DNA from: an uncultured bacterium
GTDB taxonomy: Bacteria; Fidelibacterota; Marinisomatia; Marinisomatales; UBA1611
Assembly: GCA_943788175.1 (NCBI GenBank)
Contig: CALSPG010000007.1
Location: 320,001-384,000 of the forward strand
Reading direction: 5' to 3'
DNA: 64,000 nucleotides
Position numbers and translations under genes: made by a program. This document shows, piece after piece, positions 16,127-36,294 of this stretch. Below the pieces are notes generated by a model that saw only the letters and a list, made by a program, of their open reading frames with translations, had not been told where the DNA came from and made no database searches. Numbering within the stretch: position 1 is the first letter of the stretch; each line of letters begins with the position of its first letter.

Positions 16127-18203
16127 ATTAATTATTTATACACTGCTCTCAGCACTAGGTTTTAGTCAAAACCCTAGTCCTTACAGGTATAGCTTAAAAT
16201 CAACTACTGATGGAGAGACATCTTTTTTTGAGGATGGTTTTAATAGTAATGTAGTTGCAGAAATTAAACTGATGAGTGATTCTCTAACTTGGTTTGGAAC
16301 GGGGAGAGGATTGTCATTATATGATGGAAAAAGTGCATTTACATATCAATCTACCACAGACTCTATTGTTGATATATTTACAAATCCTAGCTCTGTAACC
16401 AGTGTCTTGCCAAGCGGTGGGGTTTCAGCAATTGCAACATCAAATGATACTCTTTTAGTTGCATTTGCTGGTGATGATAACAACACACCATTAGGACTGG
16501 GTCTTGCAATAGCTTTTAAGGCGGGCTCATGGTATGAAACAGAGCCAACTGAAATAATGTCTTTTGATTTTTTATGGGATAGTCTCGCTGTTGATACCCT
16601 TAATGGTGTTTATTTTGGATTTGACAGTGAGTATGAAATAGGAACTGGATACAAAGGAACTTTTATAGTTTTAGGCCCCTTGACAGAAGCAGTGAAGACA
16701 ACAATCTCAGATAGCGTCAAAACTAATACTATTATCAAAATTACTAATTCTGATTTATCTAAAACATTAAGTTTTACTGTTCAGTCAATAACCGATTATA
16801 GTACAGCTCAAGTTCAATTAATTATTCAGTCCGGATCAATAAATTATAGCTCAATTAATGATGTTGGTTTTTTAAATGGTGAAACAGTTAAACTCAATAT
16901 AACAAAAGCCACAAAGGCTATAGCTTGGCAGTTTCTTCCTCAACCAGTGGATACTGATTTAGATATAGAAGTTCCTTTTGGGGAAGGTTATTTTTGGCAA
17001 TTACCTGTCACTGTATCTCAGGCAAATGTCACTTACGATGCTTCAATTTCAGGTAAATATTTATATGTAGCTAGCTGGGCTGGAGGTCTTCGCAGGTACG
17101 ACTTATCAATCAATTTAAGAAAGCCTCAAAATATTCCAATGCCTATGGATTGGCAATCGCAATTATCTACATGTCAGGATAGCGCTTATATAGATACTTT
17201 ATCAAAAATAACGGGCGATCCTATTTCTGTTCTAAAAAATTATTACTTAAATCCGCGTGACCCTGCTGACGGAGGGAATCACAATCATAAAGCTTTTTCA
17301 GTCCTAGCTTACGACAATAGAGTCTGGGTAGGGACTGCAAACGGTCTCAATAAAGGTAGGATTGTTGAAGAAATAATTCAGATATCGGAAAATGAATATG
17401 AAATTTTAAGCTGCATAGAATGGGACCATTACAAATACCCTTCAAATGGAATTTCAGGCAACTTTGTTGTTGCCTTGGGAAAACAAATCTGGAATAATCA
17501 AACCACAATTTGGGCAGCAACTGTTAGTACAGGTGAAAGTGGTGAAAACCAAGGCTTAAGTTATTCAAGAGATGATGGAGCCTCCTGGAAAACAGCCTTG
17601 CTTGGAGAGAGGGTATATAATATTGATGCAAAAGATTCTTTGGTTTTTGTATCTACTTCTTCTGGCCTTTGGAAGAGTTTAGATGGTGAAAATTGGGCTA
17701 AGTTCGACCCGGCAATCGAAAAAAGCCTTTTAAATCAAAGACAAATTCTTACAAATAGTGTCTATGCTGCAAAAATTGACAGTAGGGATTCAATTCCCAA
17801 ACTTTGGGTTGGAACTCCAGACGGTGTAGCTTTATCTCTAAATACTCAAGGTGATGATTGGAAAATTTTTCAAGCCGATCATGATATTGATGAAGTATAT
17901 GCTTATCCCAATCCTTTTTCTCCTCTCACTCATAATATGCTAGATAGTGATGGTTACGTTCGATTCCACGTTGGAAACATTGTTAATAAAGAGGTTAAAA
18001 TAGATATTTTTAATTTTGCTATGGAAAAAGTTCACTCAAAAAAGTACAACCTCAATTCTTACTACGGTGCTATCAAGTGGGATGGTAGAGATATGTTAGG
18101 TAATCATGTCGCCAACGGAGTTTATTTTATTCGAATTAATTATTCGAAATCAAGAAATCAATCTCCTGGTGATAATTGGACGAAATTAATAATTGTAAAA
18201 TGA
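16098..18203 (+). CDS. Beta-propeller protein with C-terminal T9SS/FlgD-Ig sorting domain (PorZ-like architecture)
   Basis: WFGTGRGLS, VWVGTANGL, LWVGTPDGV blades; SRDDGASW Asp-box; VYAYPNPF...WDGRD...VANGVYF. Confidence 0.75.
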   Translation: MRHMKLSYNRLIIYTLLSALGFSQNPSPYRYSLKSTTDGETSFFEDGFNSNVVAEIKLMSDSLTWFGTGRGLSLYDGKSAFTYQSTTDSIVDIFTNPSSVTSVLPSGGVSAIATSNDTLLVAFAGDDNNTPLGLGLAIAFKAGSWYETEPTEIMSFDFLWDSLAVDTLNGVYFGFDSEYEIGTGYKGTFIVLGPLTEAVKTTISDSVKTNTIIKITNSDLSKTLSFTVQSITDYSTAQVQLIIQSGSINYSSINDVGFLNGETVKLNITKATKAIAWQFLPQPVDTDLDIEVPFGEGYFWQLPVTVSQANVTYDASISGKYLYVASWAGGLRRYDLSINLRKPQNIPMPMDWQSQLSTCQDSAYIDTLSKITGDPISVLKNYYLNPRDPADGGNHNHKAFSVLAYDNRVWVGTANGLNKGRIVEEIIQISENEYEILSCIEWDHYKYPSNGISGNFVVALGKQIWNNQTTIWAATVSTGESGENQGLSYSRDDGASWKTALLGERVYNIDAKDSLVFVSTSSGLWKSLDGENWAKFDPAIEKSLLNQRQILTNSVYAAKIDSRDSIPKLWVGTPDGVALSLNTQGDDWKIFQADHDIDEVYAYPNPFSPLTHNMLDSDGYVRFHVGNIVNKEVKIDIFNFAMEKVHSKKYNLNSYYGAIKWDGRDMLGNHVANGVYFIRINYSKSRNQSPGDNWTKLIIVK

Positions 18204-19147
18204 AAAAATATTTAATTCATACTATCTTTATTTTCTCATTTTCATTGTCGCAGGATTATGCGGGATTATCAGGTAGTTTTTTAAGAGTTGGTGTTACCGC
18301 AAGGTCTATTGCAATGGGCGGTGCATTTACAGCAGAAAAGGACCATGGTTTTTCTACTTTTTATAACCCAGCTTGGGCTGCTTTCCTAGTTGATAGGCAA
18401 GTTGGTCTTTCCTACTCTAGTATGTCCTTAGATAGAAGATTATCTGGGCTTAGTTTTGCTACTCCCCTTCCTCCAACCGCTGGTCTAGGAATTGCTTGGG
18501 TAAGCGCTGGTGTTACAGATATTCAGGGTAGAAGTAGTGCGGGAGAAAAGACAACAGTTATGCAGACAAGTGAAGATGCTTTGATGGTTTCTTTTGCTCA
18601 GAGAATTTTACCTTGGTTTTCTTTTGGCGTAAATATCAAAATACTTCAAAATCAGTTACCGATAAATGAGTCCTATAAAGGAAGTGGTATTGGATTTGAT
18701 GTTGGATTATTGTTTAAATCTGGAAAATCGACAACTTTTGGTTTAATGATTCAAGATATTAATTCTATGTATAATTGGGATTCAGGCGACTTATATGCTC
18801 AAGGAAGAATTTATAGCGAGTATTTTCCTACGATATATAGGTTTGGGACAAAGTTTAATTATAAAAGTATAAGAGTAGTCGCTGATGCGGGGTTTATCAC
18901 TAATTATAGGATTGGTAAAGAACTATCAGAGGATATATTTATCAATTTAATGCCAAGGGTTGGAGTAGAGTACACTTATCAGGATCTATACTTTTTTAGA
19001 GGTGGGTTAGGTAACGGGCGAATAGCATTTGGTTGGGGCTTAGAGTATGACTTAATAAAAAATCACGATTCTCGTATAGATTACACATTTTCAATGGACT
19101 GGGCATCTCAGTTAGCACATACATTATCATATGCATTCAATTTCTAG
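18200..19147 (+). CDS. PorV/PorQ-family outer-membrane barrel
   Basis: FLRVGVTARSIAMGGAF...FYNPA hallmark; C-terminal YAFNF; MKKYL start overlaps upstream stop. Confidence 0.85.
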   Translation: MKKYLIHTIFIFSFSLSQDYAGLSGSFLRVGVTARSIAMGGAFTAEKDHGFSTFYNPAWAAFLVDRQVGLSYSSMSLDRRLSGLSFATPLPPTAGLGIAWVSAGVTDIQGRSSAGEKTTVMQTSEDALMVSFAQRILPWFSFGVNIKILQNQLPINESYKGSGIGFDVGLLFKSGKSTTFGLMIQDINSMYNWDSGDLYAQGRIYSEYFPTIYRFGTKFNYKSIRVVADAGFITNYRIGKELSEDIFINLMPRVGVEYTYQDLYFFRGGLGNGRIAFGWGLEYDLIKNHDSRIDYTFSMDWASQLAHTLSYAFNF

Positions 19148-20009
19148 AAAAACTTTTCTACTTTTTTGCGCATTACAATCTGTATCACCAGCGCTTGGGA
19201 CAAATTTTCTAAATTTCTCAGAAAATGCAAATGATTTAGCTTTAGGGAGACATCCCTCCGTAGGTGGTTCATCGGTAGTAAATCCATCTCTTATTAGACA
19301 GCATCATGAGAGTCCTATCTTTTTCATTAACTCTGGTAGCTGGTATGGCGATATTTCTATTTCAGGGCTTAACTATGTTCACAAAGTTGGAAATTATAAC
19401 AATAGGTTATTTTTAAAACAGGCAGAGATTAACGATCTAGAGTTTAGGGGATCTGAACCATCAGACGATCCGAATGCAATGTTTTCCGCATATGGCTTTC
19501 AATTGGGTTCTGGAATTTCTATAAAAAATGATCTTGGAGATTTTGGGGTATCAATAAGCTATTTATCCATTGGTATTTATGATCAAAATTCTAAGGGTTT
19601 TATTATCGATCTAGGGTATTCTAAATTATTATTGAATGGATGGAATATGGGCTTATCTGTTTTAAATATTGGTCACATTACAAAGTTGTATCAAGAAGTA
19701 CCTAAGCTACCTACTTTATTTTTAATTGGCGGTTCAAAAAGTTTTAGAGTTATCAATATAAGTAATAAGATTTACACAACGGCCGAATATTCTACTTTAG
19801 ATGCTATTTGGAAATTAAAATTGGGTTTGGATTTTGGATTGGAAAAAATAAAAATATTAACCGGCTATTCCATCGACAAGCATTCAGCAGCTTTTTCATT
19901 TGGTGGTGGTATTAGTTCTGGTCGATTTGGAGTTACATATGCTATTAAATTTGGTTCTCAAAAAATAGGGAACCCAAAAGTTTTAAGCCTTAGTTATATT
20001 TTACCCTGA
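19131..20009 (+). CDS. Divergent PorV/PorQ-family barrel
   Basis: FLNFSENANDLALG...VVNPS degenerate hallmark; DLG, GLSVLNIG, LPT motifs. Confidence 0.7.
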   Translation: MHSISRKTFLLFCALQSVSPALGTNFLNFSENANDLALGRHPSVGGSSVVNPSLIRQHHESPIFFINSGSWYGDISISGLNYVHKVGNYNNRLFLKQAEINDLEFRGSEPSDDPNAMFSAYGFQLGSGISIKNDLGDFGVSISYLSIGIYDQNSKGFIIDLGYSKLLLNGWNMGLSVLNIGHITKLYQEVPKLPTLFLIGGSKSFRVINISNKIYTTAEYSTLDAIWKLKLGLDFGLEKIKILTGYSIDKHSAAFSFGGGISSGRFGVTYAIKFGSQKIGNPKVLSLSYILP

Positions 20010-21882: not shown

Positions 21883-24800
21883 ATGTCAATTTCTAAAACG
21901 TATAATCATTTTATAATTATCATTACTTTTTTGATTTCTATCGCATTATCTAATTCCGGGGGAGTTGGCGGTAATTACGCAAATAATGCACCAAATTCAT
22001 CAAACTGTACTTCATGTCATTCTGGAAGCGCTAATTCTGGAAATGGAAGCGTTACAATTACGGGCTTACCCTCTGATGGTTATGTTCCTGGTGATTCCTA
22101 CAGTTTAACTATTAAAGTTTCTGGTAGTCATAGAGACGGTTATGGTTTTCAAATGGCATCTCAAGTTGGTAACAATAATGCTGGGACATTTTCTCTGAGT
22201 GGGAATTCTCAAAATGCTGAATTAAGTGGTAGTAAAGTACAGCAAAGCGCTAGGACGATATCTGGTGAATGGATAGTTGAATGGTTAGCTCCTAACTCAG
22301 ATGTTGGAGATATTACCTTTTCTGCTTCTGGTTTAGCTACTGGAGGTGCATCAAGCAATAGTGGAGATAATGTTTATACGGCATCTGTTGCTTTGCCTGC
22401 TTTTGTGCCTCAAGAGGTTGACTTATTTTTTAGTGAATATTCAGAAGGTTCTTCAAACAATAAGTATGTTGAAGTTTATAACCCTACTGGATCAGACGTC
22501 GACTTATCTAGTTATGCCATCAAAGGTACTAATAACGGCACAGCTTGGGGTGATGGTGGAGACAGAAATGTCATATTGAGCGGGACATTAAGTGCCGGGG
22601 ATGTTTTTATCATGTCAACAGATCAATCTGATCAGGCTATACTAGACGCTGCTGATTTAGCGCTACCTTATGAAAGTCCTGTCCATTACAATGGTAACGA
22701 TGCAATTGGACTCTTTAAAAATGATGAACTAATCGATGCTATTGGAGTAGAATTAGACGATCCGGGTTCTGGCGGCTGGTCTGTTTCTGGAAATAGTGGA
22801 GCAACAAAAGATAATACTTTAATTAGAAAATCAACAGTTACAACTGGGAATACAGATTGGACGCTATCTGCTGGTACTTCAGGAGACGACTCAGAATGGA
22901 TTGTTGAAGCTATAGATTACAGAGCCAATTTAGGTGTTCACGTTTATGGAAACAGTGGAGAAAATATTTTACCAATAGCAAATGCAGGTGGTAATCAAAC
23001 TGTCTTACTTGGAAGTCTCGTTACTTTAGACGGCTCTTCTAGTGTTGATCCTGATGGCTCGATAGCATCATTTCTATGGACTCAAACAGCTGGTGCAACA
23101 GTTTCCTTAAGTTCTACAGATGTTGCGGAAGTGACTTTCACAGCGCCTAATGCTGCAGATAGTTTATCTTTTACTTTACAAGTAACCGATGATGATGGTG
23201 CAAGTTCATCTGAAACTATTTATGTTAAAGCAGCATCACCAAGTCCAATTTTCTTTAGTGAATATGCCGAAGGTGGATCGGGTTATCACAAATATCTAGA
23301 AATTTATAATTCCTCAGATATTGAAATTGATCTTTCTGGTTACGCAATTTTAGGCAATGGCAATGGAGGTCCTTTTAATGATACTCTTAGATTTGATCCT
23401 AATACAATATTAGCTAGCCAGGGAGTCTACGTCATAGCGCATGCTGAGGCTGATCCAATAATATTGGCTGAGGCAGATAAAGTAATAGCTAACCCATTTA
23501 ATAACCCTGAAGGTGATCCAGATTCTTACATCGTCTCTTTCAATGGTGATGATGCTAGAGCAATCGCAAAAATCGAGGGTTCAGAATTTAATGTTATTGA
23601 TATCATTGGCACATTATCTGGTGGAGATCCTGGCAATGGATGGGATGTCGCTGGTGTTACGGATGGAACAACAAATCACACTCTTATCAGAAAACCTGCT
23701 ATCAGTTTTGGCAATGCAGACTGGGCCTCTTCTGCCGGTACTAGTGCTGATAATTCTGAATGGATTGTTAAAGATGATTTAGATTGGACAAACATTGGTT
23801 GTCACAATACCGAATGCGCGTCTACGGGCCCTGCTTTAAGCGGGCTGACAGCATCTCCAGCATTTTTGACCAATGAAACAGAAATTGAGCTAAGCGTTTC
23901 GATTATATCCGAAGTAGGTACTATTGATGAAAGTAGTGTAAAAGTAAAGTTTGGCACAAATGATCAACTGGTTAATGAGGCTCAATTATTTTTAGATGCT
24001 GGTAATACTTATGTCGGGACAATACCTGCGCAGCAAGGAAACACAAAGTTCCAAATGCGCGTTTCTGCTAAAAACAGTGAAGGCGATGAGGGTCAGTCTG
24101 ATTTAGTTGAGAGGCTTATTGCAAGTGCAACGCCAAATCAAATTTCAGAGCTTTATTCAAATCAAACTAGTGACCAATTGGTTACCATAAAAGGCATTGT
24201 AACTATTGGTGGCTCAGGGCTTTTATATCCAACGCAGACAAAAGCTTATTTACAAGATGCGTCAGGCAGAGGACTTCAATTATTTGATTATAATATAATT
24301 GAAGGTTTAGATAGAGGCGATGAAATTGAGGTAGTCGGTTACGCTGGTTACTATCAAACAACATATCAAGTGAAAGATTTTGTGTTTCGTGAAATCTCAA
24401 GCGGCAATGACCTTCCTTTACCAATTGAGGTTACTGCTTCTCAAGCAAACTCATCAAATTATGAAGGCACATTGATTGCAATTACTGGAAACATTACTGC
24501 GATTTCTCCAGTGAGTACAAATGGGAATAATTATACTATTGATGACTTAACTGCTGTAATGATTTGGAATTCTACTGGAATTGATGTTTCAGCCTTAACA
24601 GTTGGTTACCGTGGAAAATTTGTTGGCGTGGGAAGCCAATATTTTGAAAATTATCAACTCTTAGTGGGCTATGATTCTGATATTTCAACTATGGTTGGTG
24701 TTGACTTAAACGATATTATTGTTGATGAGTTTACTGTCCTTCCGGCATATCCTAATCCGTTTAATCCTGTTACAAATTTATCATTTGTTTTAGATACGCC

Positions 24801-24987
24801 TTCTGAGGTTATGTTAAAGGTCTATGATGTTAATGGAAAATTAGTAGAAGTAAGTAACTCCAAACTTTATCAATCAGGTAGGCATAGCATTCAATGGAAT
24901 GCGACTAGTTTGTCTTCTGGTATGTATTTTGTTCACTTAATGAATGGTGTTGAAAGACGTACCCAAAAAGTGATGCTATTGAAATAA
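21883..24987 (+). CDS. T9SS cargo: Reeler-like domain with CxxCH, two lamin-tail domains, PKD, OB-fold, CTD
   Basis: NCTSCH; LFFSEYSEGSSNNKYVEVYNPT and IFFSEYAEG...LEIYN; ANAGGNQ...LDGSSSVDPDG; VTIKGIVT...YLQD; AYPNPFNP...SSGMYF. Confidence 0.88.
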   Translation: MSISKTYNHFIIIITFLISIALSNSGGVGGNYANNAPNSSNCTSCHSGSANSGNGSVTITGLPSDGYVPGDSYSLTIKVSGSHRDGYGFQMASQVGNNNAGTFSLSGNSQNAELSGSKVQQSARTISGEWIVEWLAPNSDVGDITFSASGLATGGASSNSGDNVYTASVALPAFVPQEVDLFFSEYSEGSSNNKYVEVYNPTGSDVDLSSYAIKGTNNGTAWGDGGDRNVILSGTLSAGDVFIMSTDQSDQAILDAADLALPYESPVHYNGNDAIGLFKNDELIDAIGVELDDPGSGGWSVSGNSGATKDNTLIRKSTVTTGNTDWTLSAGTSGDDSEWIVEAIDYRANLGVHVYGNSGENILPIANAGGNQTVLLGSLVTLDGSSSVDPDGSIASFLWTQTAGATVSLSSTDVAEVTFTAPNAADSLSFTLQVTDDDGASSSETIYVKAASPSPIFFSEYAEGGSGYHKYLEIYNSSDIEIDLSGYAILGNGNGGPFNDTLRFDPNTILASQGVYVIAHAEADPIILAEADKVIANPFNNPEGDPDSYIVSFNGDDARAIAKIEGSEFNVIDIIGTLSGGDPGNGWDVAGVTDGTTNHTLIRKPAISFGNADWASSAGTSADNSEWIVKDDLDWTNIGCHNTECASTGPALSGLTASPAFLTNETEIELSVSIISEVGTIDESSVKVKFGTNDQLVNEAQLFLDAGNTYVGTIPAQQGNTKFQMRVSAKNSEGDEGQSDLVERLIASATPNQISELYSNQTSDQLVTIKGIVTIGGSGLLYPTQTKAYLQDASGRGLQLFDYNIIEGLDRGDEIEVVGYAGYYQTTYQVKDFVFREISSGNDLPLPIEVTASQANSSNYEGTLIAITGNITAISPVSTNGNNYTIDDLTAVMIWNSTGIDVSALTVGYRGKFVGVGSQYFENYQLLVGYDSDISTMVGVDLNDIIVDEFTVLPAYPNPFNPVTNLSFVLDTPSEVMLKVYDVNGKLVEVSNSKLYQSGRHSIQWNATSLSSGMYFVHLMNGVERRTQKVMLLK

Positions 24988-25000
24988 AACTCTAACTTTT

Positions 25001-27077
25001 ATGAAAATTATTATGAAAACTATTTCTATGGCATTTCTGTCTTCAATTTCTCTGTTATTAGGGCAGTTAGATCATATTATAATTAGTGAAGTAGTTCTTA
25101 CTCCGTCTGATGGTGAATATGTAGAGATAAATAACCCGACTAGTATAGCAGTTGATCTGTCAAATTATTATTTGACAGATGCGACCGATATATCTTCAAA
25201 TAAATTTTACTACAACCTTCCTAGTGGTGAAAATTTTTGGAGTGAATCTAGTTCAGACTTTGTTTGTAGGTTTCCATCAGGTTACACAATCCAAGCAGGT
25301 TCTTCACTCAAAATATCTCTGAGGAGCAATAACCTTTATCAAAATACGTATGGTGATACTGCTGATCTAGCGCTTGATGACTCAATGCTAAGTGTGCTAG
25401 AAGGAACAAATACAAAGGGTAATGCTGGCCTCCCAAAACTAAGTAATTCTAGTGAACCGCTTATTCTCTTTTACTGGGATGGTTCATCTGAGGTAATTAA
25501 AGATGTTGATTATTTGATGTGGGGAAATAATTCTTTTGCGATAGATAAGTCTGGCGTCAGTGGGTATTTAGCTGATACGCCTGCTCAAAACCATTCATTT
25601 ATGCCTGTACATGCTACAAATGAAAAACTTGCTAGGTTAGATAAAAATAGCGAAGGAGAAGAGTCAGAATCTGGTGGTAATGGAATTACAGGACATGATG
25701 AAACTAGCGAACCCTTAGCTGAAACTTGGATAGTGACTAGTTTGACTTCGTCTAAGCCAGAAATTTCAAACCTTAGCTTATCTCCCTCTAGTCCGTTCAT
25801 CGACGACACGTTGAAGTTTGAAGTAAACGTAACAGATGATGAAGGAATATCATCAGTCATGTTAAGATATGAATTCCAACAACAAGTTAATTCTGTTGCT
25901 ATGTCTGTGAGTGAAAGTTCACCATCTCTTTATTCAGTTAAAATCAATCCATTAGAAGAAGTTGGTTCAATTATTTATTCTGTTATAGCTGAAGATTTTT
26001 CTGGTTTAAAAGATTCTACTAGTAGAAATGCAGTGGCTATAAATGAACCTATTGCGGAGCTAACAATAGCAAGCCTTTTAACGGGTTTTAATGATTATCT
26101 AGGTCAAGCAGTTCAATTTAATGCTGTAGTTACTGTCCCTGCTGGTATACTTCGCACAAACAGAGTTCAAGTTTTTGTACAAGATAAATCTGAGAGAGGG
26201 ATTTTATTAGATGCTCCAACTTCATCAGAGCCTCTGAAAAGAGGAGACTCTATTAGCATAACGGGACCTTTAGGCGCTTATTTAAGTAGCACTGGCGACC
26301 TTCAGCCGCAAATTCAAGATGCTAGTATTAATATTTTATCATCTGGCCTCAGTATTCCTGTTGTCGACTTAGGAGATTTAGGAAGTATTTATAAGTTTAA
26401 TGAAGTCACTCAATTTAATTATCCTGATAATTCTCAGAATATTGATGTCATTAAGTACATGAATTCTTATGTAAAGCTTTCTGGGAAAATAGTATCAAGG
26501 TCAGATGATCTTGGTGGGGGTTCTAATATTGAATTGCAAGATGAAGAAGGCGCTTTTACTACGGTTAGAATATGGAATTCGAGCAATATATTGCTCGACG
26601 AATCAGGAGATATTACAAACACTTTGGTTGATTCCTCTGTTGAGGGTTGGTAGTAGCGTAGAGATAAAAGGTATAGGCGGGCAATACTTAGGTTCAAGTC
26701 AGATTCAACCAGCATATGCCTCTGATATTTCAGAAAAACTAGAGGGTGAGGTTGGTAGTTTTAAGGCAACATTAGATATCCCACCTTATCCATTTGTTCC
26801 TCAGCTTGGTGAGGTAATTAGCTTCAAATATAGTTTTCCATCTGATGCTAGAATTAAACTAAGAGTTTTTGATATTAATGGGCGATTAATTACTACCCTT
26901 TATGATGAATATCGGGGAGTTTCATTTGAAAAAACAGCTAGATGGAATGGGCGAGACAACTTAAATAGGTTGGTCCCAAGTGGTACCTATTTAATTCATT
27001 TAGACATTGTTAATTCTTTAACAGGAAAAAATTATCAGAAAATTGCCCCAGTAGTAATAGCCGCTTATGAGAATTAA
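25001..27077 (+). CDS. T9SS cargo: lamin-tail plus two OB-folds plus FlgD-Ig CTD; +1 frameshift near 26633 joins ORFs 25001-26653 and 26505-27077
   Basis: IIISEV...EYVEINNPT...DLSNYYLTD; VFVQD...GDSISITG; repaired junction VDSLLRVGSSVEIKG; WNGRD...VPSGTYL. Confidence 0.8.
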
Positions 27078-27975
27078 TATGAAACAAAACTTTATAAGTT
27101 TTTATATTTTTATGATTATTGCCTTTGGTAATGTCTTTTCTCAAGTGACTACTGAGCAAATTTATTATGGTGCGAGCTCATTGTCTATGTCGGCAAGTGA
27201 TATAGCCTTGCCTAAAAATTCATGGTCTCTTTTCGTAAATGCGGCTGGTATTGCCAGGCAGAAAGGCCTTTCATTAGTTGCAAGTTCACAATCTCATTTT
27301 AATCAAGACTATTTAAGTCACTCTCTTCTAGGCTTCCAGTTTAAAACTTCAAAATATGGGGCCTATGGAATATCTGTTGAAAATTTTTCAGTTGATTATA
27401 GTGGGAGCAGTTTATCTGCTGAAACTGCCATTGGTTTTCACCAGGGAATAATGTTGCGATCAGACAGAAGCAGCTCTTTTTCGATAGGTTACGGAGTAAA
27501 ATATTACAATATTGACTATGGTACCTCAGCAGGACCTTCTGGAGATGGTTCTGATGGAATAAAACTTGGCTCCTTAAGTACGTTTGGGCTGGACATAAGT
27601 TTTCTTGGGTCTTTAGCTGCTAGAATTAGAGTAGGCGCAAAAGCTTTAAACATTAACAGTCCAACTCTAGGAGACGCAAATAATTCAACAAGACTTCCAC
27701 AAAGATCTCAGATTGGTATCGCCTATTCGCCATATGATTTGGTCTGGACAACAGTTTCTCTTAATAAAAGTGTTGGTCATCCTACTCACTTTAGCAGCGG
27801 GCTTTCTTACGAAATACAAAAAAATATTTTTTTAAAAACTGGAATGCAGACTAGTCCAAATCGTTTCTCTTCGGGTTTTGAAGTTTATTTTAAAAAAATA
27901 AAAATTGATTATGGATTCATCACTCATCCAGTATTACCATTGTCTCATCAAATTTCAATCGAGGTTAATCGTTAA
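27067..27975 (+). CDS. PorV/PorQ-like barrel
   Basis: GASSLSMS...LFVNAAG; NINSP; DYGFITHPVLPLSHQISI C-terminus. Confidence 0.72.
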   Translation: MRINMKQNFISFYIFMIIAFGNVFSQVTTEQIYYGASSLSMSASDIALPKNSWSLFVNAAGIARQKGLSLVASSQSHFNQDYLSHSLLGFQFKTSKYGAYGISVENFSVDYSGSSLSAETAIGFHQGIMLRSDRSSSFSIGYGVKYYNIDYGTSAGPSGDGSDGIKLGSLSTFGLDISFLGSLAARIRVGAKALNINSPTLGDANNSTRLPQRSQIGIAYSPYDLVWTTVSLNKSVGHPTHFSSGLSYEIQKNIFLKTGMQTSPNRFSSGFEVYFKKIKIDYGFITHPVLPLSHQISIEVNR

Positions 27976-30442
27976 TGAGATCACTTTTTTTTTATGTGTT
28001 CTCGATTACTCTTATCATTGGCCAAAAGATTTCGTTAAACTCGGCTTCAATCGAAGATTTGAAGACCCTTCCACTATCTGAAAATCAAGTTGCTGATCTC
28101 TACGATTTTGTATTGTATCAAGGTCCTGTTAATGATGTTTATGATTTAGCCAAAATTTCAAGTTTTGAGCCTGAGAACATTAATGCTCTTAAATCTCTTA
28201 TTAGTATAACAAGTAATGACGATACAAAAAAAAATGTATCCAGAATTAGTGACAGATATAGGAAGGTAGAAAATTGGACTTCTGAAGAAGGTGCTAACGA
28301 AGGTCTTGTAGAGGTATGGCTAGATAGGCTTGCTGAGCCAAAAAATATTAACACTGCAACCTGGAATGACTTAATGGCTTTACAAAATGTTAGTCCCGTT
28401 GATGCTGTTGCGGTCATGAAGAGAATCGAAGAAAGTAAAATAACGTACCCAAAAGCTCTAAGAGGAGCAATTGGTCTTAGCTATTGGGGTTATCGTAATA
28501 TGGTTGACTTCTTTACATATGATGAAGAAGATACTACGGACTCTTTTCATCTTTGGTATAACACTACATACAAAACGCTACCTTCTACGACTTCCTTTGA
28601 TGATGAAGTAGGTTTAGTGATCAACTTAGTGATCACCCTGGAGACTTGCATCATAAAATAGTTGCTACTTTTGGGAAACATTGGAAGTTATCATTAGCAT
28701 CTCACAGGCAATTAGGTGAAAAAGTTTATGATTTCAAGATTGGTGATTTTGAGGTACCTACTGCAAAATATTCTCTTACTTATAGGGATCTCAAGCTAGG
28801 CGGGTTAAAATTTGACAGGGTAATACTAGGAAACTTTTCTGCTACTATTGGTCAGGGTGTAATATTTGAAAATACAGATTTTTTCTCGCCTAGAAGATCT
28901 GGTTATAGTTGGAGCAGAAGAGTGCATGGTGTTTTTCCTGATATATCTAGGACCAGAGAGTATGCTTTAAAAGGACTCGCATTTCAAGCTGGTAATAAGC
29001 TGTTTGATGTTATGGGCTTTTTATCAAAAAATAAAAGAGATGCTATTCTAAACATATCAGACAGTTCTGTTGCCTCTTTAATTACACTATATCCAAGAAC
29101 AAATAATGGTTTTGGTGTAGAGTCTTTATTAATGCCAATGCTTGAGACTTTAGAAGAAGTGACTTATGGTGGTAGCATAAGACTTATTCCACTTTACGGT
29201 ACTTTTATTGGTTTTTCAGCATATGAGAGTTTGTACGATAAGCCTTTAAGGCCTGATATAGCAACAACTGTAATAGCAGATGAAAGTGAAGGGAAATTTT
29301 TAACATCTATTGGGAATACAGCAGATACTGAAATCGCTGCAATGTATTCTAATTATGGTGAATCATCATTATGGGATAAAGCGAGATCTTTCCGGCGAGT
29401 TTTTGGCATGGATTTTTCAACAGTAATTAGAAATATAGCATTTCAAGGTGAATATGGTATATTAGATAAAAATGGTAATATGAGTGTTGAGGTATCAGAC
29501 CCAAAAGCTTTTGTGTTTAGTGGTTATGCACAATTTAATAATTTTAGTATGTTAGTGGTTTATCGCGACTATGACTTAGAGTATGATAATCCGTATCAAC
29601 GATCTTTTGCAAATTACCAGAGATATAAAGGTAGTATTTTCGAAGATACTTTTTATTTAGAAGATCCGATTTATGGATTTTTATACACGGGTCAAGCTCA
29701 GCCACAATCTGAAAAAGGCATATATGTAAATAGTAGATATCAGCCTCATCGCGCATTAGTTTTATCTGGAGACTTTGATACTTGGACTAGAGTTGCAGAT
29801 CAAGCAAAGTACTACAGAACCGTAATGCGTGCTCAGTATAGACCCGTATTTAATTTGCGTTTTAGTATAAGGCACAAATGGCAAAAAAGAGGCTCAATGA
29901 ATATTTTAGATCCGGCTGCTTATTATTCTCAAGAAACGATTATACGTTCGCAACTGAGATTATCTGGCTATGATCAGATCGAGTTGATGTGGGTACGCTC
30001 ATGGGTCGACTTTTCTAACAGAAGGCGCTTAACTCTTGATCTTGCTTCAGGGGGAGAAGAATCATCTATGATTGGTAGTGCGGGTACGGGTAGTGAAGCA
30101 ATTGGGTTTAAAATCACTCATAATTTCAATCAACGGATGAAAGCAATGGGGCAAGTAATGTTCTACAATGGTTTTATTTGGAATTTTGAGGATACAGATT
30201 TTAGAGTTTTTGATAGCAATTCTGATGCAGTTCGGTATTGGATTTCATTATTTTCTCGTTTAAATGATCGTTGGGCAATTAGATTAAAATGGACAGTTGA
30301 TAGTTCTGCGCCAGTAACAAATTATATTTTTGAACCTAGTGATCCAACAGGTCAATATCCTGATCAACGGGTAAGTTGGAAAACTGTTAGTGGAGAAAAT
30401 TTCACAAATGATATTAGATTACAGATAGATTATGCTTTTTAA
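27975..30442 (+). CDS. ComEA-type helix-hairpin-helix domains fused to an outer-membrane beta-barrel; frameshift near 28613 joins 27975-28661 and 28646-30442
   Basis: ISLNSASIEDLKTLP and NINTATWNDLMALQNV HhH repeats; ILGNFSATIGQG; repaired junction VGFSDQLSDHPGDLHHK; C-terminal IDYAF. Confidence 0.8.
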
Positions 30443-31742
30443 ATTAAAAAATAAAATTAAAATCATTGGATTGTTTGCGATGAACCTTGTTTTTAGTCAA
30501 CAATATTTTTCGCCATTAATCCCCTCTAATAACTTTTTATCAAGCGCAAGTATGCTAGCAAAAGGTGGAGAGTTTTCAGGGTTATTTTCTCATTCTGTTT
30601 TTTCAAAGTATGGTGAGGTGTTTAATTTTGAGTTTGATCTTACTAGGAACTCATATGCAGAACGTAGAAGTGTTCCAGTAATAGATATGTTTGATGATGT
30701 TGTAACTCAAAATGTATATGCTCTCAATAGGCCAGCTTTCGCTTCAATTTCATGGTCTTTATCTGGCAGTGTAAATAATTATTTAAAATTACCCGTTTCC
30801 TTGTCGGTATCTGATTCTCCTTACTGGGATTTTAGATATGACTATTCTGAAGAAGTTCGAGCTAGTCTTGGTCCAGGAGTCTATAATCGTGACCCTGTAG
30901 TTGGCTATCATCTGATAAATATAGATGGAGTTATTCGCTCACTTAAAATTGGAATAGCATCAAAAATTAATAGTTGGTTGAAAATGGGAGTTCTTTTAGA
31001 TAATCTTTATGAAGATGAGTTGTTTTATATGAAAGGTGTTAATGTGTTTGAAAAAGATGACGCCTTGGCCAGTGATACAACCCTATTAAAAGATATAAAC
31101 ATGTCTGTTGAAAATGTTAGTCGTTTTACGTTTGGAGCAACAGTTGATTTGAAAAGGAATATATCTATCGCTCTTTCCGTAACCCCTTCAACAGAAATAA
31201 AATTTTTGACAGATGGCTTAATACCTTCTATTGATGAAAAAACTCAACTACCAAGTTTCAATTTTAGTGATACTTCTTCAAATTATAGTATTACTCTTCC
31301 TCAAGAAATTAATCTTGGCTTTTCTATACAGGTAAATAATCCTACTAAAACAAATATTACAGGTGGGTTAATTTTTAAAGATTGGGAAAATCATGACATT
31401 TATAAAGTATATCATTCATCTACAGATACATCAACTCACAATTATCAATCGACAATAGGTTTATCTGTTGGTGTAGAACACCTAATTTTAGGAAAAACAC
31501 CGTTTAGGTTTGGTTTTATTTATAGTGACTCTCCACTTGGAGAGGAGTTTGAGATAACAAAAGTTACTCTTGGAAGTGGTTGGGCATATAATAATATAAG
31601 TTTTGATGTCGTTGCAGTTTTTGGATCAGTTGATTACAGGTATGGAGATTTATTTCCATCTATTGCACAAGAGAATTTATCATTAGATAGGATTGATGAA
31701 AAAAATACAGTGTTAAAGGCTACAATTAATTATTCTTTTTAA
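30432..31742 (+). CDS. Outer-membrane beta-barrel, FadL/PorV-like C-terminal half
   Basis: LPQEINLG, LSVGVEH, PFRFGF, TLGSGW; ends INYSF. Confidence 0.7.
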   Translation: MLFKLKNKIKIIGLFAMNLVFSQQYFSPLIPSNNFLSSASMLAKGGEFSGLFSHSVFSKYGEVFNFEFDLTRNSYAERRSVPVIDMFDDVVTQNVYALNRPAFASISWSLSGSVNNYLKLPVSLSVSDSPYWDFRYDYSEEVRASLGPGVYNRDPVVGYHLINIDGVIRSLKIGIASKINSWLKMGVLLDNLYEDELFYMKGVNVFEKDDALASDTTLLKDINMSVENVSRFTFGATVDLKRNISIALSVTPSTEIKFLTDGLIPSIDEKTQLPSFNFSDTSSNYSITLPQEINLGFSIQVNNPTKTNITGGLIFKDWENHDIYKVYHSSTDTSTHNYQSTIGLSVGVEHLILGKTPFRFGFIYSDSPLGEEFEITKVTLGSGWAYNNISFDVVAVFGSVDYRYGDLFPSIAQENLSLDRIDEKNTVLKATINYSF

Positions 31743-31764: not shown

Positions 31765-33666
31765 ATGAAAAGAATACTCCCGTTAATTCTATTTATTATT
31801 TTTGCCAGCTCTATTTATTCTAGGTCTTCCAAATTGCACCTTGTTTTTACAAATAACATCCATGGCGCTATTCATGAGCTTCCAGCGCGATTTATTAATC
31901 CTGAGTTTTCTCCTCTTCTAGCTGGAGGAGCTGGTGCCTATACCTATGTAACTAATCTAAGAAAAGAAGCTAGTGAAGCTGGTGATTTTGTCATTCTTAC
32001 AGACGCCGGTAGTTTATTTCAAGGAACTCAGTTGGGAACAGATGATGGTGGAACAAAAATAATGAAATGGATGAATTGGATGGCGTATGATGCATTTGTT
32101 CCTGGAGTAAGAGATTTTGACCAAGGTGTTGAGAATTTAGAAAGATTGAAAAAAGAATCGAATTTTCCATTTCTTGCTTCCAACCTCAAAGGAGTAAGTG
32201 GGATAGATAATTATAAAGTTATTGATGCCAATGGAATAAAAATAGGACTCATAGGTTTAATCACTCCATTTTTATTTGACGGATTAGTGCCTGAAAATTA
32301 TGAAGGTGTAGAAGTCCTTGATTTACTAGAAACTTTAAATACTCAAATCGAAACTATTCGCAACGATGTTGATCTTATCTTTGTTTTATCTCATTTAGGT
32401 CTTCCATATAATCGAGAAGATGAGTACGAAAGTTTTATAAAAAAGGCATCTCAAGAAAAGTTAAAAATTAAAAATGCAATTGAGTTAGCTCATTTCACAA
32501 ACGATGTAGACGTTATTATAACAGGTGGCGTGAGTAAAGGATATGATACGCCTTGGGTTGATCCGAATACTCATACTATTGTAGTTCAAAACTATGGAAA
32601 TCTTACAGGTATAGGTCATCTCATATTGAATGTTGACAAAGAAAAAAAAATAATAAAAGATTATACTTTTCCAACTGAGCGTGGAATGATGGTCAATTTA
32701 TTTACTGATGATATATGGCCTGATTTGGCAGTCCAAGATTCGATAAATGGTTGGGTAGATTCTATTTCTTCTCTTCATAATAGAGATTATACGAAGCAAA
32801 TTTCAGAAATTGAAGAAACTGACTGTTCTTCTGATAATACTATTTCAAATTTCAATGAATTTGACGTCTCGTCTGTTGGAGATGATAAGCTATTAGATAT
32901 TATGACATGGAACATGGAAAGATTTCCATTGAAAGGTGACACTACGATGAAAGCTGTTGCCGAAATAATACAAGATTTAAATGTTGATATTATCGGGGTG
33001 CAAGAGGTTATAAAGATTGGAGCTTTTTCTGAAATGATGTCTTGGTTGCCTAATTATGATTTTGTGATAAGTAAGCAATCATCATTTTTAGAACAGGCGA
33101 TTATTTATAAAAAAAATATGTTTACGGTTTTAGCTCAAGATGAGCCGTTTGCCATGGACGATTATTATTTTGCTGGTCGCCCACCTTTGGTAGTCGATTT
33201 TCTTTATCATTGTGGAGATGTAAAAAAGGAAATTTGTATTGTTAATATGCATTTAAAATGTTGTGGAGACGGTCTTTACAGAAGACAACAGTCTATGAAG
33301 CAATTACATGGATTTTTAAAAGAAAAATCTAAAAATGGTAAAGATAATATCATAGTAGTTGGAGATTGGAATGATCAATTGCAAGATACCGGTATTTATC
33401 AATCATTTAGTCCATTTATAAATGACCAAGAAAATTTTCTTTTTGTTACGAGTAGAATAGTTAATGATCCTAATCAGCAATCATATCCTAGTTGGCCTAG
33501 TTTTTTAGATCATATTATGATAGGTCGTGGATACTTTGATGTTTTTGAAAAAGAAGGAATAGTGCGATCAGTCAATTTAGATGAATGGATCGGTGGCTGG
33601 GAAGAGTATGAAAGTATTATATCAGATCACAGGCCAATACTGCTTTCAATACCTATAGGGGAATGA
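31765..33666 (+). CDS. Secreted fusion: degenerate 5'-nucleotidase metallophosphatase domain plus EEP (DNase I-like) domain
   Basis: TNNIHG, DAGSLFQGT, FPFLASN, SHLG; then MTWNME, GVQEV, RPP, HLKCC, GDWND, LDHI, SDHRP. Confidence 0.88.
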   Translation: MKRILPLILFIIFASSIYSRSSKLHLVFTNNIHGAIHELPARFINPEFSPLLAGGAGAYTYVTNLRKEASEAGDFVILTDAGSLFQGTQLGTDDGGTKIMKWMNWMAYDAFVPGVRDFDQGVENLERLKKESNFPFLASNLKGVSGIDNYKVIDANGIKIGLIGLITPFLFDGLVPENYEGVEVLDLLETLNTQIETIRNDVDLIFVLSHLGLPYNREDEYESFIKKASQEKLKIKNAIELAHFTNDVDVIITGGVSKGYDTPWVDPNTHTIVVQNYGNLTGIGHLILNVDKEKKIIKDYTFPTERGMMVNLFTDDIWPDLAVQDSINGWVDSISSLHNRDYTKQISEIEETDCSSDNTISNFNEFDVSSVGDDKLLDIMTWNMERFPLKGDTTMKAVAEIIQDLNVDIIGVQEVIKIGAFSEMMSWLPNYDFVISKQSSFLEQAIIYKKNMFTVLAQDEPFAMDDYYFAGRPPLVVDFLYHCGDVKKEICIVNMHLKCCGDGLYRRQQSMKQLHGFLKEKSKNGKDNIIVVGDWNDQLQDTGIYQSFSPFINDQENFLFVTSRIVNDPNQQSYPSWPSFLDHIMIGRGYFDVFEKEGIVRSVNLDEWIGGWEEYESIISDHRPILLSIPIGE

Positions 33667-34547
33667 AACTAGTTTATCCATTAGTTCTTGCCTCTATTTT
33701 TTTTTCTTGCGCCAGCCCCACTGAACAAGAAAATATTAATGGTGGTAGTTCAGTAGAGTTATTACCTAACCTTAATTTAGAAGATGGTATTGAAGTTGTG
33801 ACCTGGAACATTGAATTTTTTCCAAAATTGGGCCAAAGAACAATAGATTCTGTAAAAAAAATTATAAAAACTTTAAATGCAGATATTTACTGTTTGCAAG
33901 AAATATCAAGTCGATACTCATTTGAAGAACTTGCAGAATCACTAACTGAATATGATTTTGTAATTTCAGAAGACACAGATTATTTAAATTTAGTTGTATT
34001 ATACAAAAAAAATGATTTTGTAGTAAGAAGCCAATCTAGCTTATTTACCAATAGCGTTTATGAGTTTGCTTATCGGCCGCCGTTAAGATTAGAAATGACA
34101 TATCTGGGGCAAAATGCATTTGATTTCACTCTTATTAATATGCATCTAAAATGCTGTAATAATGGTTATGATAGAAGAAAAGCTTCCGTGGACATACTGC
34201 ATGATTATTTGAATAGTTCTGTTCAGTCTGGTATCGTTAATCATATTGTGGTTGGAGATTGGAATGATGATATATCCGATAGCTATAATCAAAATTCTTT
34301 TAATATCTTTTTAGAAGATAATGATAACTATAGGTATGTCACTTATGATAATGCTCATTCAAATACAAATATTTATGACTCCTTTCCGAGTTACCCGAGT
34401 TTTATAGATCATATAATGATATCTGCAGATTTATTTGAAAAAGAGGGCTCGGGTGATGTACAAACTATCAGACTTGGTGATTATATTTCTGGATATGATG
34501 AAATAATTTCAGATCATCGACCAGTAGTTTGGAGATTTATACCATGA
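33663..34547 (+). CDS. EEP-family nuclease/phosphatase lipoprotein
   Basis: Lipobox FFSC; VTWNIE, LQEI, RPP, HLKCC, GDWND, IDHI, SDHRPV. Confidence 0.9.
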   Translation: MKLVYPLVLASIFFSCASPTEQENINGGSSVELLPNLNLEDGIEVVTWNIEFFPKLGQRTIDSVKKIIKTLNADIYCLQEISSRYSFEELAESLTEYDFVISEDTDYLNLVVLYKKNDFVVRSQSSLFTNSVYEFAYRPPLRLEMTYLGQNAFDFTLINMHLKCCNNGYDRRKASVDILHDYLNSSVQSGIVNHIVVGDWNDDISDSYNQNSFNIFLEDNDNYRYVTYDNAHSNTNIYDSFPSYPSFIDHIMISADLFEKEGSGDVQTIRLGDYISGYDEIISDHRPVVWRFIP

Positions 34548-35518
34548 AAAATTCTCTGATATTTTGTTTTTTAGTGACTTTACAATTTAGTCTAGCTGAT
34601 GAAATATCATATCTACGCTATTATGCAAATGAAAAAAATTTTATTGCTAACGTACCAATGAAAGCAACAAATAGGAGGGGGTATGATCATCTTACAGCAT
34701 ATTTCAATGATCGAAATTTGCCTGTGAAGCTTGAATATTATATTTCCAATGGCAGTTTGAAAAAACGAGAAGTAATGGAATATAATAGCGATAAAGTTTT
34801 GATACAAAAAGGAGAGGTAAATAGTAAAGGTGAGTTTTTAAAATTAGTTGTATATAGCAATAATGAACCCTGGAGTATTGAATTTCAAAAATCTAATTAT
34901 ATTGATAAAGAAGAAATTGATTTTGTAGATCAACGTTCTACTTTTATCATTCCAAGGGGGAAGCAAGTTACCCAAATAATATTTGAGACGATTGATGGCA
35001 TGAAGTATGGAAAAATTGAACTGGATTATGATTACTTAGGCTACCTTTCTGAGGAAAGGTGGAGGGCTATTCCCTCAGGTGAAATAATCAGAAGATTTAA
35101 TTATAAATTTGATTTGATGTCTAATGTCACTCAAATTTGGGAGTTTGGTAAAAATAGTGAACTGATTTCTGAAGTTGCATTGGACATGGTTCCAGCGGAC
35201 CAATTATATCGAACACCTCCTCCAAGAACAGGAAACGTGTTAGATGAATATGATATTATTAGAAAAGAAATTAAAGAGAAGAGAATTATTTCACCAAACA
35301 ACTCTTTTATTCCCAGTACGAAATTTGATCAACTAGTATTGAAATCTGGACAGTCCTTTGAAGTAGACTTTATTGGTACAAATACCAATGGGATTCAATT
35401 TAAATTATTAGATAATAATGGTCTTTTAACTATTCCATTTGATAATGTACGTTCTTTGACCTCGCGCATGGGGGATGTAATTTATCCAGAGGCAATCGAG
35501 TTTAGGAAAAGCTATTGA
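34544..35518 (+). CDS. Exported hypothetical protein
   Basis: Signal peptide MKNSLIFCFLVTLQFSLA; beta-hairpin (YD/MORN-like) character. Confidence 0.7.
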   Translation: MKNSLIFCFLVTLQFSLADEISYLRYYANEKNFIANVPMKATNRRGYDHLTAYFNDRNLPVKLEYYISNGSLKKREVMEYNSDKVLIQKGEVNSKGEFLKLVVYSNNEPWSIEFQKSNYIDKEEIDFVDQRSTFIIPRGKQVTQIIFETIDGMKYGKIELDYDYLGYLSEERWRAIPSGEIIRRFNYKFDLMSNVTQIWEFGKNSELISEVALDMVPADQLYRTPPPRTGNVLDEYDIIRKEIKEKRIISPNNSFIPSTKFDQLVLKSGQSFEVDFIGTNTNGIQFKLLDNNGLLTIPFDNVRSLTSRMGDVIYPEAIEFRKSY

Positions 35519-36294
35519 AAAGAAATTTTATAACCTTATTTTTATTTTTTAATGTATCGTTTAGTCAAACATATCCTACCGGTCAAAACTATCCGCCACC
35601 AACAGATTTAATTACTGTCCCAACAGCTGCAACACTAATGCGAGGTAGTTTTTCTTTAGGAATGCGCATTCAAGATGAGGGTGGAATGATTCTAGGCTTG
35701 AGAGCTGGAATTACAGATAGGTTTCAATTTGGTTTATCATATGGTTCATCAAACTTAATAGGTGATGATAGTCTACGTTGGTACCCAAGGCCAGAGGCTA
35801 ATTTAAAATATATGCTTATGGATGAATCTATCACAACGCCTGGTATTGCTATGGGCTTAAATACACAGGGCTTCGGCAATTTTAATTTAGGTGACTCGCT
35901 TAACCGATATGATATGAAAGCCTATGGTTTTTATCTAAGTGCAAGTAAAAATTGGAAAACAGGATTAGGCAATTTAGGAATGCACGGTGGAGTCAGTTAC
36001 AATTTTACTGAAACAGATGATGGCGATGAAGACCCAAATTTATTCTTTGGAATGGACATAGAAATCAATCCTGAATTTTCACTTTTAATGGAGTATAATG
36101 CAGCGCTTAATGAAAATGATATGACAACTGAAACATTGGCAATTAGTAGAGGTGGATATCTGAATGCTGCGATTCGTTGGACATTTGTCGAACATCTGCA
36201 CTTAGAATTAAACTTTAATAATTTATTATTTGATGAAGATAAAGTGGATTACTTCAAGCGAGAAATTAAAATTATTTACATCGAATATTTTTAG
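35515..36294 (+). CDS. Outer-membrane barrel, YjbH-domain-like
   Basis: LITVPTAATL N-terminal motif; amphipathic strands; C-terminal IEYF. Confidence 0.65.
   Translation: MKRNFITLFLFFNVSFSQTYPTGQNYPPPTDLITVPTAATLMRGSFSLGMRIQDEGGMILGLRAGITDRFQFGLSYGSSNLIGDDSLRWYPRPEANLKYMLMDESITTPGIAMGLNTQGFGNFNLGDSLNRYDMKAYGFYLSASKNWKTGLGNLGMHGGVSYNFTETDDGDEDPNLFFGMDIEINPEFSLLMEYNAALNENDMTTETLAISRGGYLNAAIRWTFVEHLHLELNFNNLLFDEDKVDYFKREIKIIYIEYF

Follow-up and report, generated by a model that had tools for sequence, protein, structure and literature searches.

An outer-membrane barrel with fused ComEA-like modules in a type IX-linked gene module of Fidelibacterota: a candidate gate for DNA scavenging

The closest known system to the locus described here is the DNA-utilisation locus ddbABCDEF of Bacteroides. 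Sharan et al. describe ddbABCDEF of B. thetaiotaomicron as required for the depletion of added DNA, and list as its components three nucleases together with DdbC (a TonB-dependent transporter), DdbD (a DUF5689 protein) and DdbE; DdbC and DdbD are presented there as homologous to the RA0C_RS04915/RS04920 pair of Riemerella (PMC12478041). In the account of a Riemerella transposon screen, transformation needs the DUF5689 protein RA0C_RS04920, the adjacent outer-membrane barrel RS04915, which has a carboxypeptidase-regulatory domain, and a separate helix-hairpin-helix (HhH) protein, RS02645 (PMC8459023). A ratchet model of ComEA has been put forward for Vibrio cholerae (PMC3879209). The present analysis concerns a gene at 27975..30442 (+ strand, like every other member of its gene module) of a 64,000-nucleotide stretch (contig CALSPG010000007.1 of assembly GCA_943788175.1, positions 320,001 to 384,000; hereafter, the window) from an uncultured bacterium. 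The gene encodes a protein of 822 amino acids (aa), here called the HhH barrel, in which two ComEA-like HhH modules precede an outer-membrane barrel of about 24 strands. The initial annotation had pointed to Bacteroidota, wrongly so: the organism belongs to Marinimicrobia/SAR406, and a 90%-identical protein comes from Candidatus Neomarinimicrobiota. SAR406/Marinimicrobia is now called Fidelibacterota (PMC11652737).

The module around this gene resembles the ddb locus and the Riemerella pair in joining a surface binder of the DUF5689/OB-like type to an outer-membrane barrel. By sequence, two putative nucleases of the module, of which one would be a lipoprotein and the other periplasmic, further recall ddb, and both loci follow the logic of polysaccharide-utilisation loci. 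However, DdbC is TonB-dependent and carries a plug and a carboxypeptidase-regulatory domain, whereas the HhH barrel has no such Pfam domain in any of 56 aligned members and carries ComEA-like modules; the ddb binder is a lipoprotein, whereas the binders of the present module carry type IX sorting domains; and, unlike ddb, the module includes two FadL/PorV-fold barrels and a 5'-nucleotidase as fixed members. ComEA (PDB 8dss, 8dfk and 2duy) and the HhH modules have in common the HHH_3 fold, a periplasmic site (predicted here) and a proposed role in holding incoming DNA. ComEA, in contrast, is a small protein, free or membrane-anchored, that acts behind the PilQ secretin, while here two modules with degenerate Gly-x-Gly hairpins are fused to the barrel itself. 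The SprA-PorV translocon (PDB 6h3i) is similar in pairing a large barrel with a 14-strand barrel of the PorV family, with sorting-domain cargo encoded nearby. However, SprA, an export translocon with 36 strands and about 2400 aa, is three times the size of the HhH-barrel protein, which carries HhH modules and is encoded together with enzymes of nucleic-acid breakdown.

Judged from sequence, what appears to be new is a barrel with ComEA-like modules and no plug in the place of the TonB-dependent transporter, binders displayed by type IX secretion, and two added FadL/PorV-fold barrels. A full-text literature search, with most subscription journals outside its reach, found no paper describing the HhH-barrel fusion. 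The analysis established the architecture and fold class of the protein, the conserved gene order and the domain content of the neighbouring genes. We propose, with a probability of about one half, that the HhH barrel acts as the gate in the outer membrane for a DNA-scavenging module lacking any TonB-dependent transporter.

Architecture of the HhH-barrel protein

Read across a one-base gap in the window by comparison with intact homologues, the 822-aa protein starts with a signal peptide, continues with two HhH modules and a barrel of about 24 strands, and ends in Phe. A model was built with AlphaFold2 from a 56-row alignment of full-length relatives (predicted local distance difference test, pLDDT, 83.4; predicted template modelling score, pTM, 0.82). 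The signal peptide (aa 1-16, MRSLFFYVFSITLIIG; 27975..28022), recognised in the sequence and modelled as a helix at residues 2-15, is followed by HhH module 1 (aa 17-80; 28023..28214), a ComEA/EEPD1-like HHH_3 unit identified by Pfam, structure superposition and profile comparison. A helical hairpin linker (aa 81-121; 28215..28337; model helices 86-103 and 109-120) leads to HhH module 2 (aa 122-182; 28338..28520), a divergent unit with a conserved NVSPxDA hairpin, recognised by a weak HHH_3 match, the model and its conservation.

Module 1 (aa 17-75) matches Pfam HHH_3 (PF12836) with an E-value of 3.7e-8 and 33.8 bits (cut-off 27), and its model superposes on Geobacillus ComEA (8dss_B) with a Z-score of 11.5 and a root-mean-square deviation (rmsd) of 1.2 A over 64 residues at 20% identity. 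The HHH_3 match of module 2 (aa ~122-182) is weak (E 0.027); in the model, modules 1 (aa 17-79) and 2 (122-182) share the same pattern of a short strand, four helices and a short strand. The family profile matches human EEPD1 (2.3e-18), in which two HhH units lie beside an EEP nuclease domain, and the ComEA structures 8dss (1.2e-10) and 8dfk (2.6e-10). All 56 family members match HhH families only in Pfam, and all 56 match HHH_3; the protein falls below the TIGR01259 cut-off (18.7 bits vs 152.35). The reading of two HhH modules ahead of a barrel ending in Phe, already given in the initial annotation, is thus borne out by the HHH_3 match, the ComEA superposition and the model.

The barrel (aa 191-822; 28545..30439) takes up about 630 of the 822 residues, with some 24 long strands modelled from aa 191 to 821. 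The protein shows the signal peptide, the amphipathic antiparallel strands and the aromatic C-terminal beta-signal of outer-membrane beta-barrels; its C-terminus reads IDYAF and the family consensus ends in QLDYxF. The best fold matches are outer-membrane barrels, with Z-scores of 13-15, including OmpM1 (14.9) and AlgE (14.8). The longest structural alignments are with barrels of similar strand count, the FimD/PapC ushers with 24 strands (FimD pore 3ohn_B, Z 13.2, 362 aligned residues, rmsd 4.6) and MtrB with 26 (6r2q_B, Z 11.6, 420 aligned residues). At 7-10% identity, and with no usher plug or chaperone-binding domains in the HhH barrel, this likeness is one of fold class only. Matches to TonB-dependent transporters are generic, with Z-scores of about 10, and a Foldseek search of the PDB returned only generic barrel matches (template modelling score 0.18-0.35), from which no specific family could be named. 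No Pfam family covers the barrel in any of the 56 aligned members, and no plug, TonB-dependent, carboxypeptidase-regulatory, secretin (PF00263) or usher Pfam domain was found in any of them at E <= 0.1. DUF6029, suggested as a look-alike by an ESM Atlas score of 0.93, was dropped, as the Pfam DUF6029 profile matches none of the 56 members at the same threshold.

Reading the strands back from the C-terminal Phe gives 11 periplasmic turns of 2-5 residues and 12 outer loops. Under the usual sidedness rule for such barrels, short turns and long loops counted back from the C-terminus place the N-terminus in the periplasm, so the HhH modules are predicted to sit there, at the periplasmic end of the barrel. 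Two of the outer loops are long and conserved, L3 (aa 293-331) and L7 (aa 534-579); L7 and L3 are the best-conserved parts of the family, followed by module 2. The net charge of the lumen-facing strand residues, as estimated from how residues alternate along the strands of the sequence, is +13 (29 K/R vs 16 D/E), and the mean over the 56 family members is +11.2 (range +4 to +18). The basic/aromatic segments picked out in the initial annotation are present at aa 303-315 (FSPRRSGYSWSRR), 633-639 (RHKWQKR) and 681-685 (SNRRR).

A conserved module with type IX cargo and nucleic-acid enzymes

Gene order around the HhH barrel is the same in all 12 loci analysed in the phylum, which come from eight families: a lamin-tail/PKD cargo protein, a second lamin-tail cargo protein, a barrel of about 300 aa, the HhH barrel, a barrel of 436 aa and a metallophosphatase of the 5'-nucleotidase type. 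Both cargo proteins carry a type IX sorting domain. In seven of the 12 loci, the metallophosphatase includes an EEP domain, and another EEP protein is encoded by the next gene. A related arrangement was found in 12 loci from other phyla, where a PorV/Q-like gene lies directly upstream of the HhH barrel in nine (two more end at a contig edge), a FadL-like gene downstream in seven and a 5'-nucleotidase in seven, and where sorting-domain cargo precedes the barrel in eight. The cargo proteins of these loci contain DUF5689, OB-fold, lamin-tail and Ig-like domains; DUF5689, with or without an OB-fold, is present in the cargo of L044, L083 and L088, in L044 and L083 with scores above cut-off. No nuclease is as constant in the module as the 5'-nucleotidase. 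L034 and L083 each encode a small PLD-type nuclease, and L032 encodes a DHH phosphoesterase. The PLD-family protein (L034:11549-12094 and L083:11492-12070; ~185 aa, PLDc_2, Nuc-type nuclease fold) sits between the FadL-like barrel and the nucleotidase, the position held by the EEP domains in Fidelibacterota; judging by its sequence, a different nuclease family was recruited to the same module in these two loci. Nucleic acid, and DNA in particular, is well supported by this gene context as the substrate of the module.

In the window, the small barrel of the PorV/PorQ family (302 aa; 27067..27975) is the fixed upstream partner of the HhH barrel, as indicated by synteny and by a complex model. 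NF033709 (PorV/PorQ) matches 12 of 13 members of this small-barrel family (best E 2.3e-14), and the window copy itself gave no match. The complex of HhH-barrel residues 185-822 with residues 27-302 of the PorV/PorQ-like protein, both entered as alignments, was modelled with a score of 0.62, while the best of three controls scored 0.02; the score mark used is reached by 116 of 157 solved complexes and by two of 215 mismatched pairs. Contact agreement between runs was at least 95% and the pLDDT of the partner at least 79. On the side of the HhH barrel, the interface consists of outward-facing residues in strands 18-23, which means that the two proteins pack laterally in the membrane. The model thus supports binding of the PorV/PorQ-like protein to the HhH barrel.

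The downstream barrel (436 aa; 30432..31742) is assigned a 14-strand FadL fold from its fold matches, led by the F. johnsoniae BAM-complex chain 9n2d_B (Z 28.5) in a tie with FadL (1t16_A, 28.0) and followed by PorV (6h3i_F, 22.5); its sequence matches to FadL and PorV are weak. The two small barrels, of 302 and 436 aa, are related to each other (hhalign probability 95.8%).

Upstream of the barrels, cargo 1 (1034 aa; 21883..24987) carries its sorting domain at the C-terminus, along with two lamin-tail domains and one PKD domain. Cargo 2 (25001..27077) combines lamin-tail, Ig, OB-fold and sorting domains; in the window, another one-base indel near 26634-26637 breaks its gene into 25001..26653 and 26505..27077. 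It forms a single frame of 656-669 aa in the seven relatives scanned. A surface protein of the DUF5689/OB type known from ddb is therefore found beside the HhH barrel, since an OB-fold (PF01336) was detected in six of seven orthologues of cargo 2, three of them above cut-off, and DUF5689 scores above cut-off in L044 and L083; the DUF5689 match in the window, in cargo 1 at 24307-24684, is weak (E 0.0015).

Downstream of the barrels, a metallophosphatase half of the 5'-nucleotidase type is fused to an EEP nuclease-type domain (31765..33666), with a plain type I signal peptide and no sorting domain. It is followed by an EEP-family lipoprotein (33663..34547), the N-terminus of which reads IFFSC followed by ASP at the lipobox; its orthologues also have Cys lipoboxes, and a phmmer search of the PDB with this protein returned nothing at E <= 0.01. 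Given the lipoprotein signal of the one and the plain signal peptide without sorting domain of the other, the EEP lipoprotein is probably surface-anchored and the nucleotidase-EEP fusion periplasmic. Two further conserved genes, neither with a Pfam family, follow at 34529-36294. The first encodes a 329-aa protein with a signal peptide; the second encodes a 259-aa protein that ends in IYIEYF, like a small outer-membrane barrel, and is 92% identical within the genus and 67% identical in two other families.

A type IX secretion block in the same orientation lies upstream of the module at 9014-20009. Its genes encode a SprA-like translocon (1774 aa), an M28 peptidase, a sorting-domain protein (701 aa), a PorV-like protein (323 aa) and a 292-aa protein. 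Within it, sprA and the PorV-like gene occupy 9014-19147, with the SprA translocon 13 kb upstream of the HhH barrel.

An exhaustive search of cluster representatives for the HhH-barrel family gave 303 matches at E <= 0.001, 92 of them at E <= 1e-30; most of the representatives are 780-890 aa long with the same layout. In a sample of 201 genomes of the phylum, 181 have some match to the family, and about 98 have a full-length match, better than 1e-100, the others matching only the HhH unit. One family with genomes of about 1 Mb gave no HhH-barrel match in 13 genomes. A pattern scan of species-representative genomes with an eight-row sub-alignment confirmed 158 relatives, and outside the phylum relatives are found in WOR-3, TA06, Edwardsbacteria, Latescibacterota, Stahlbacteria, Coatesbacteria, Fermentibacteraceae, Gemmatimonadetes and Cloacimonadota. 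A short form (633 aa), which has just one HhH unit, is encoded in genomes of a different family within the phylum (L110:7462-9360 and L111:7678-9576). Its barrel matches the family profile in pieces and its gene lies directly behind a PorV/PorQ-like gene. As this short form keeps it too, the pairing of a PorV/PorQ-like protein with an HhH barrel is the most constant feature.

Conduit for DNA or docking platform

The mechanism that we propose would begin at the cell surface, where the two cargo proteins, which type IX secretion would export, would capture extracellular DNA with their lamin-tail and OB-fold/DUF5689-like domains. The PorV/PorQ-like barrel, predicted to pack against the wall of the large barrel, would probably hold these cargo proteins by their sorting domains. 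The EEP nuclease lipoprotein would cut the captured DNA, and the fragments would pass through the presumably open lumen of the barrel of about 24 strands. In the periplasm, the two tethered ComEA-like modules would bind the incoming strand, prevent it from sliding back and hand it to the periplasmic nuclease/5'-nucleotidase, which would free nucleosides and phosphate. A pore and a ratchet in one polypeptide, as the initial annotation had it, would be a plausible description of such a protein.

Several observations weigh against this proposal. HhH hairpins require Gly-x-Gly, and both hairpins of module 1 lack it (LPLSE and SSFE here); at hairpin 1, the family consensus has one residue fewer than ComEA; and the net charge of module 1 is negative, at -5 here and -2.9 as the family mean. 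With degenerate hairpins and an acidic module 1, DNA binding by the HhH modules, which the proposal presumes, cannot be taken for granted. Loops L3 and L7 may fold into the lumen and occlude the barrel, and several fold-search alignments to plugged transporters start at model residue ~95-104, from which module 2 may sit at the barrel mouth. The complex model may reflect side-by-side packing of any two barrels, as its three unrelated-protein controls may not be membrane barrels. Finally, no EEP gene or recognisable nuclease was found within the fetched 20 kb in five of the 12 phylum loci, nuclease-type domains occur among the scanned open reading frames (ORFs) in only three of the 12 loci from other phyla, and about half of the sampled genomes of the phylum have no HhH-barrel gene.

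Alternatively, the barrel could be a docking platform and not a conduit. Together with the PorV/PorQ-like and FadL-fold barrels, it would anchor the secreted lamin-tail/OB-fold proteins; the HhH modules would serve protein contacts or periplasmic anchoring, DNA would be digested outside the cell, and nucleosides and phosphate would enter by ordinary porins. Proteins of the PorV/PorQ family carry or anchor type IX cargo, and it is a member of this family that is the most constant partner, and that the complex model packs on the outer wall of the barrel; a SprA translocon is encoded 13 kb upstream. The degenerate hairpins and the acidity of module 1 would also fit, as HhH-like folds occur in proteins that do not bind DNA, such as protein K of the type II secretion system, which is matched by ten of the 56 members, and OmpM1 and SlpA, both of which combine a barrel with a periplasmic anchoring domain, are among the top fold matches. 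However, an anchor would need neither a barrel as large as about 24 strands nor an inner wall that is basic. Moreover, the nuclease/nucleotidase has a type I signal peptide and no sorting domain, implying that a phosphorylated substrate reaches the periplasm, and the closest relatives of the HhH modules are ComEA and EEPD1, a nuclease partner. We consider the platform rather unlikely and retain the gate for DNA scavenging as our preferred explanation.

Gene integrity, physiological role and significance

The gene is not continuous in the window, where it is split into two ORFs in different frames, 27975..28661 (228 aa) and 28646..30442 (598 aa), both frames being open only across 28607-28661. 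With the 598-aa part as query, 605 proteins were retrieved at E <= 0.001; among the best 120, nearly all are 819-822 aa long and cover the entire query. Intact 822-aa homologues are 100% identical to the window over the 598-aa part, and the four read at the junction have FDDEVGLV followed by DQLSDHPGDLHHK. The window reads ttagtg-atcaac at this point, and the intact form requires ttagtgGatcaac. Since intact homologues read through the junction, one G is absent after 28618 (28618..28619; GTGGAT read as GTGAT), as indicated by homologues and metagenome contigs alike. The gene span of 2468 nucleotides (nt) corresponds to 822 codons and a stop, minus one base. A profile search of the window matched both halves to the single family profile with no internal stop, and the gene has one copy in this genome. 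Right at the frameshift site (28614-28637), the window has two tandem copies of a 12-base repeat, TTAGTGATCA(A/C)C. This direct repeat was rejected as the cause of the frameshift, as its period preserves the frame; it may have favoured an assembly or polishing error.

Metagenomes provide an independent view of the same stretch. In 19 of 24 runs listed, from eight studies, at least 85% of the words sampled from window positions 26300-28900 are present, and all runs that carry a label are marine or seawater metagenomes. Contigs from four runs, one per study, were compared with the window. In all four, a G is inserted behind 28618 with a depth equal to the total depth, and one base fewer than in the window is found at 26637, or at 26634 in a second strain, which joins the frame of cargo 2. 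One contig of 11,607 nt spans the whole stretch with two substitutions and two indels in 2601 bases and may represent the window's own source sample. In two genomes of the same genus, the HhH-barrel frame is open, with 826 aa.

The HhH-barrel gene is, thus, intact in natural populations, and the frameshift in the window is most likely an assembly error, since a ratio of indels to substitutions of 1:1 is typical of assembly error and not of divergence. A true pseudogene in the strain of the window, with a decaying DNA-scavenging module, is improbable. It would explain why the two frameshifts recognised in the 64-kb window fall in adjacent genes of one module and why neither site is a long homopolymer. 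However, both genes are intact in the runs of all four studies, one contig differs from the window by no more than two substitutions and two indels, and downstream of the frameshift there are no stops or other damage. The earlier statement that the gene is hidden by a frameshift holds for the window, where it probably describes an artefact, since all four runs restore the G. For annotation, the split gene of this assembly should be read as intact, and the public name of the 90%-identical homologue, 'MAG: ComEA family DNA-binding protein [Candidatus Neomarinimicrobiota bacterium]', masks three quarters of the protein.

The initial annotation had left nutrition and competence side by side and named pilQ and comEC as the genes to look for. 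ComEC (PF03772) was not found in the genome of the window (92% complete) or in two same-genus genomes with an intact barrel gene (95% and 92% complete), by a search that finds it in ten of 14 control genomes; it is present in three more distant carriers of the barrel (G178, G017 and G029). The window's genome has two separate secretin genes elsewhere, both short (438 and 500 aa), with STN, Secretin_N and Secretin domains (G000 contigs C5:208816-209355 and C1:88739-89218). One of them adjoins a gene for a CHASE2 protein and the other a gene for a macroglobulin-like protein, and no pilMNOP-like gene was found in the 1.5-kb flanks of either. The constant 5'-nucleotidase, the nucleases and the failure to find ComEC in the genus favour nutrition over competence. 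That the barrel is instead the outer-membrane DNA channel of a competence system feeding ComEC, as proposed for Riemerella RA0C_RS04915/RA0C_RS04920, is very unlikely: the ComEA-like modules, the ComEC of the three distant carriers and the reported essentiality of DUF5689-type surface proteins for Riemerella transformation (PMC8459023) speak for it, whereas ComEC was not found in the three genomes of the genus and the 5'-nucleotidase of the cluster would destroy rather than preserve incoming nucleic acid.

To our knowledge, no mechanism is known by which DNA fragments cross the outer membrane without a pilus and secretin or a TonB-dependent transporter. Tentatively, the HhH barrel might represent a third outer-membrane route for DNA beside the PilQ secretin and DdbC, in which tethered ComEA-like modules would rectify the diffusion of the strand into the periplasm through a passive pore of about 24 strands, a PorV-like protein would couple the pore to DNA binders displayed by type IX secretion, and the whole would act as a sink for DNA in the ocean. 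A pore that carries its own ComEA-like ratchet would be mechanistically simple and would not depend on an energy source.

In the deep ocean, dissolved DNA forms a major pool of organic phosphorus and nitrogen, and SAR406 ranks with the most abundant bacterial lineages. If the proposal is true, the route would have a wide distribution, across SAR406 and several uncultured phyla related to Bacteroidota, and it would constitute a significant sink for dissolved DNA in the ocean. The HhH-barrel gene would then also serve as a marker of DNA foraging in the metagenomes of many uncultured phyla.

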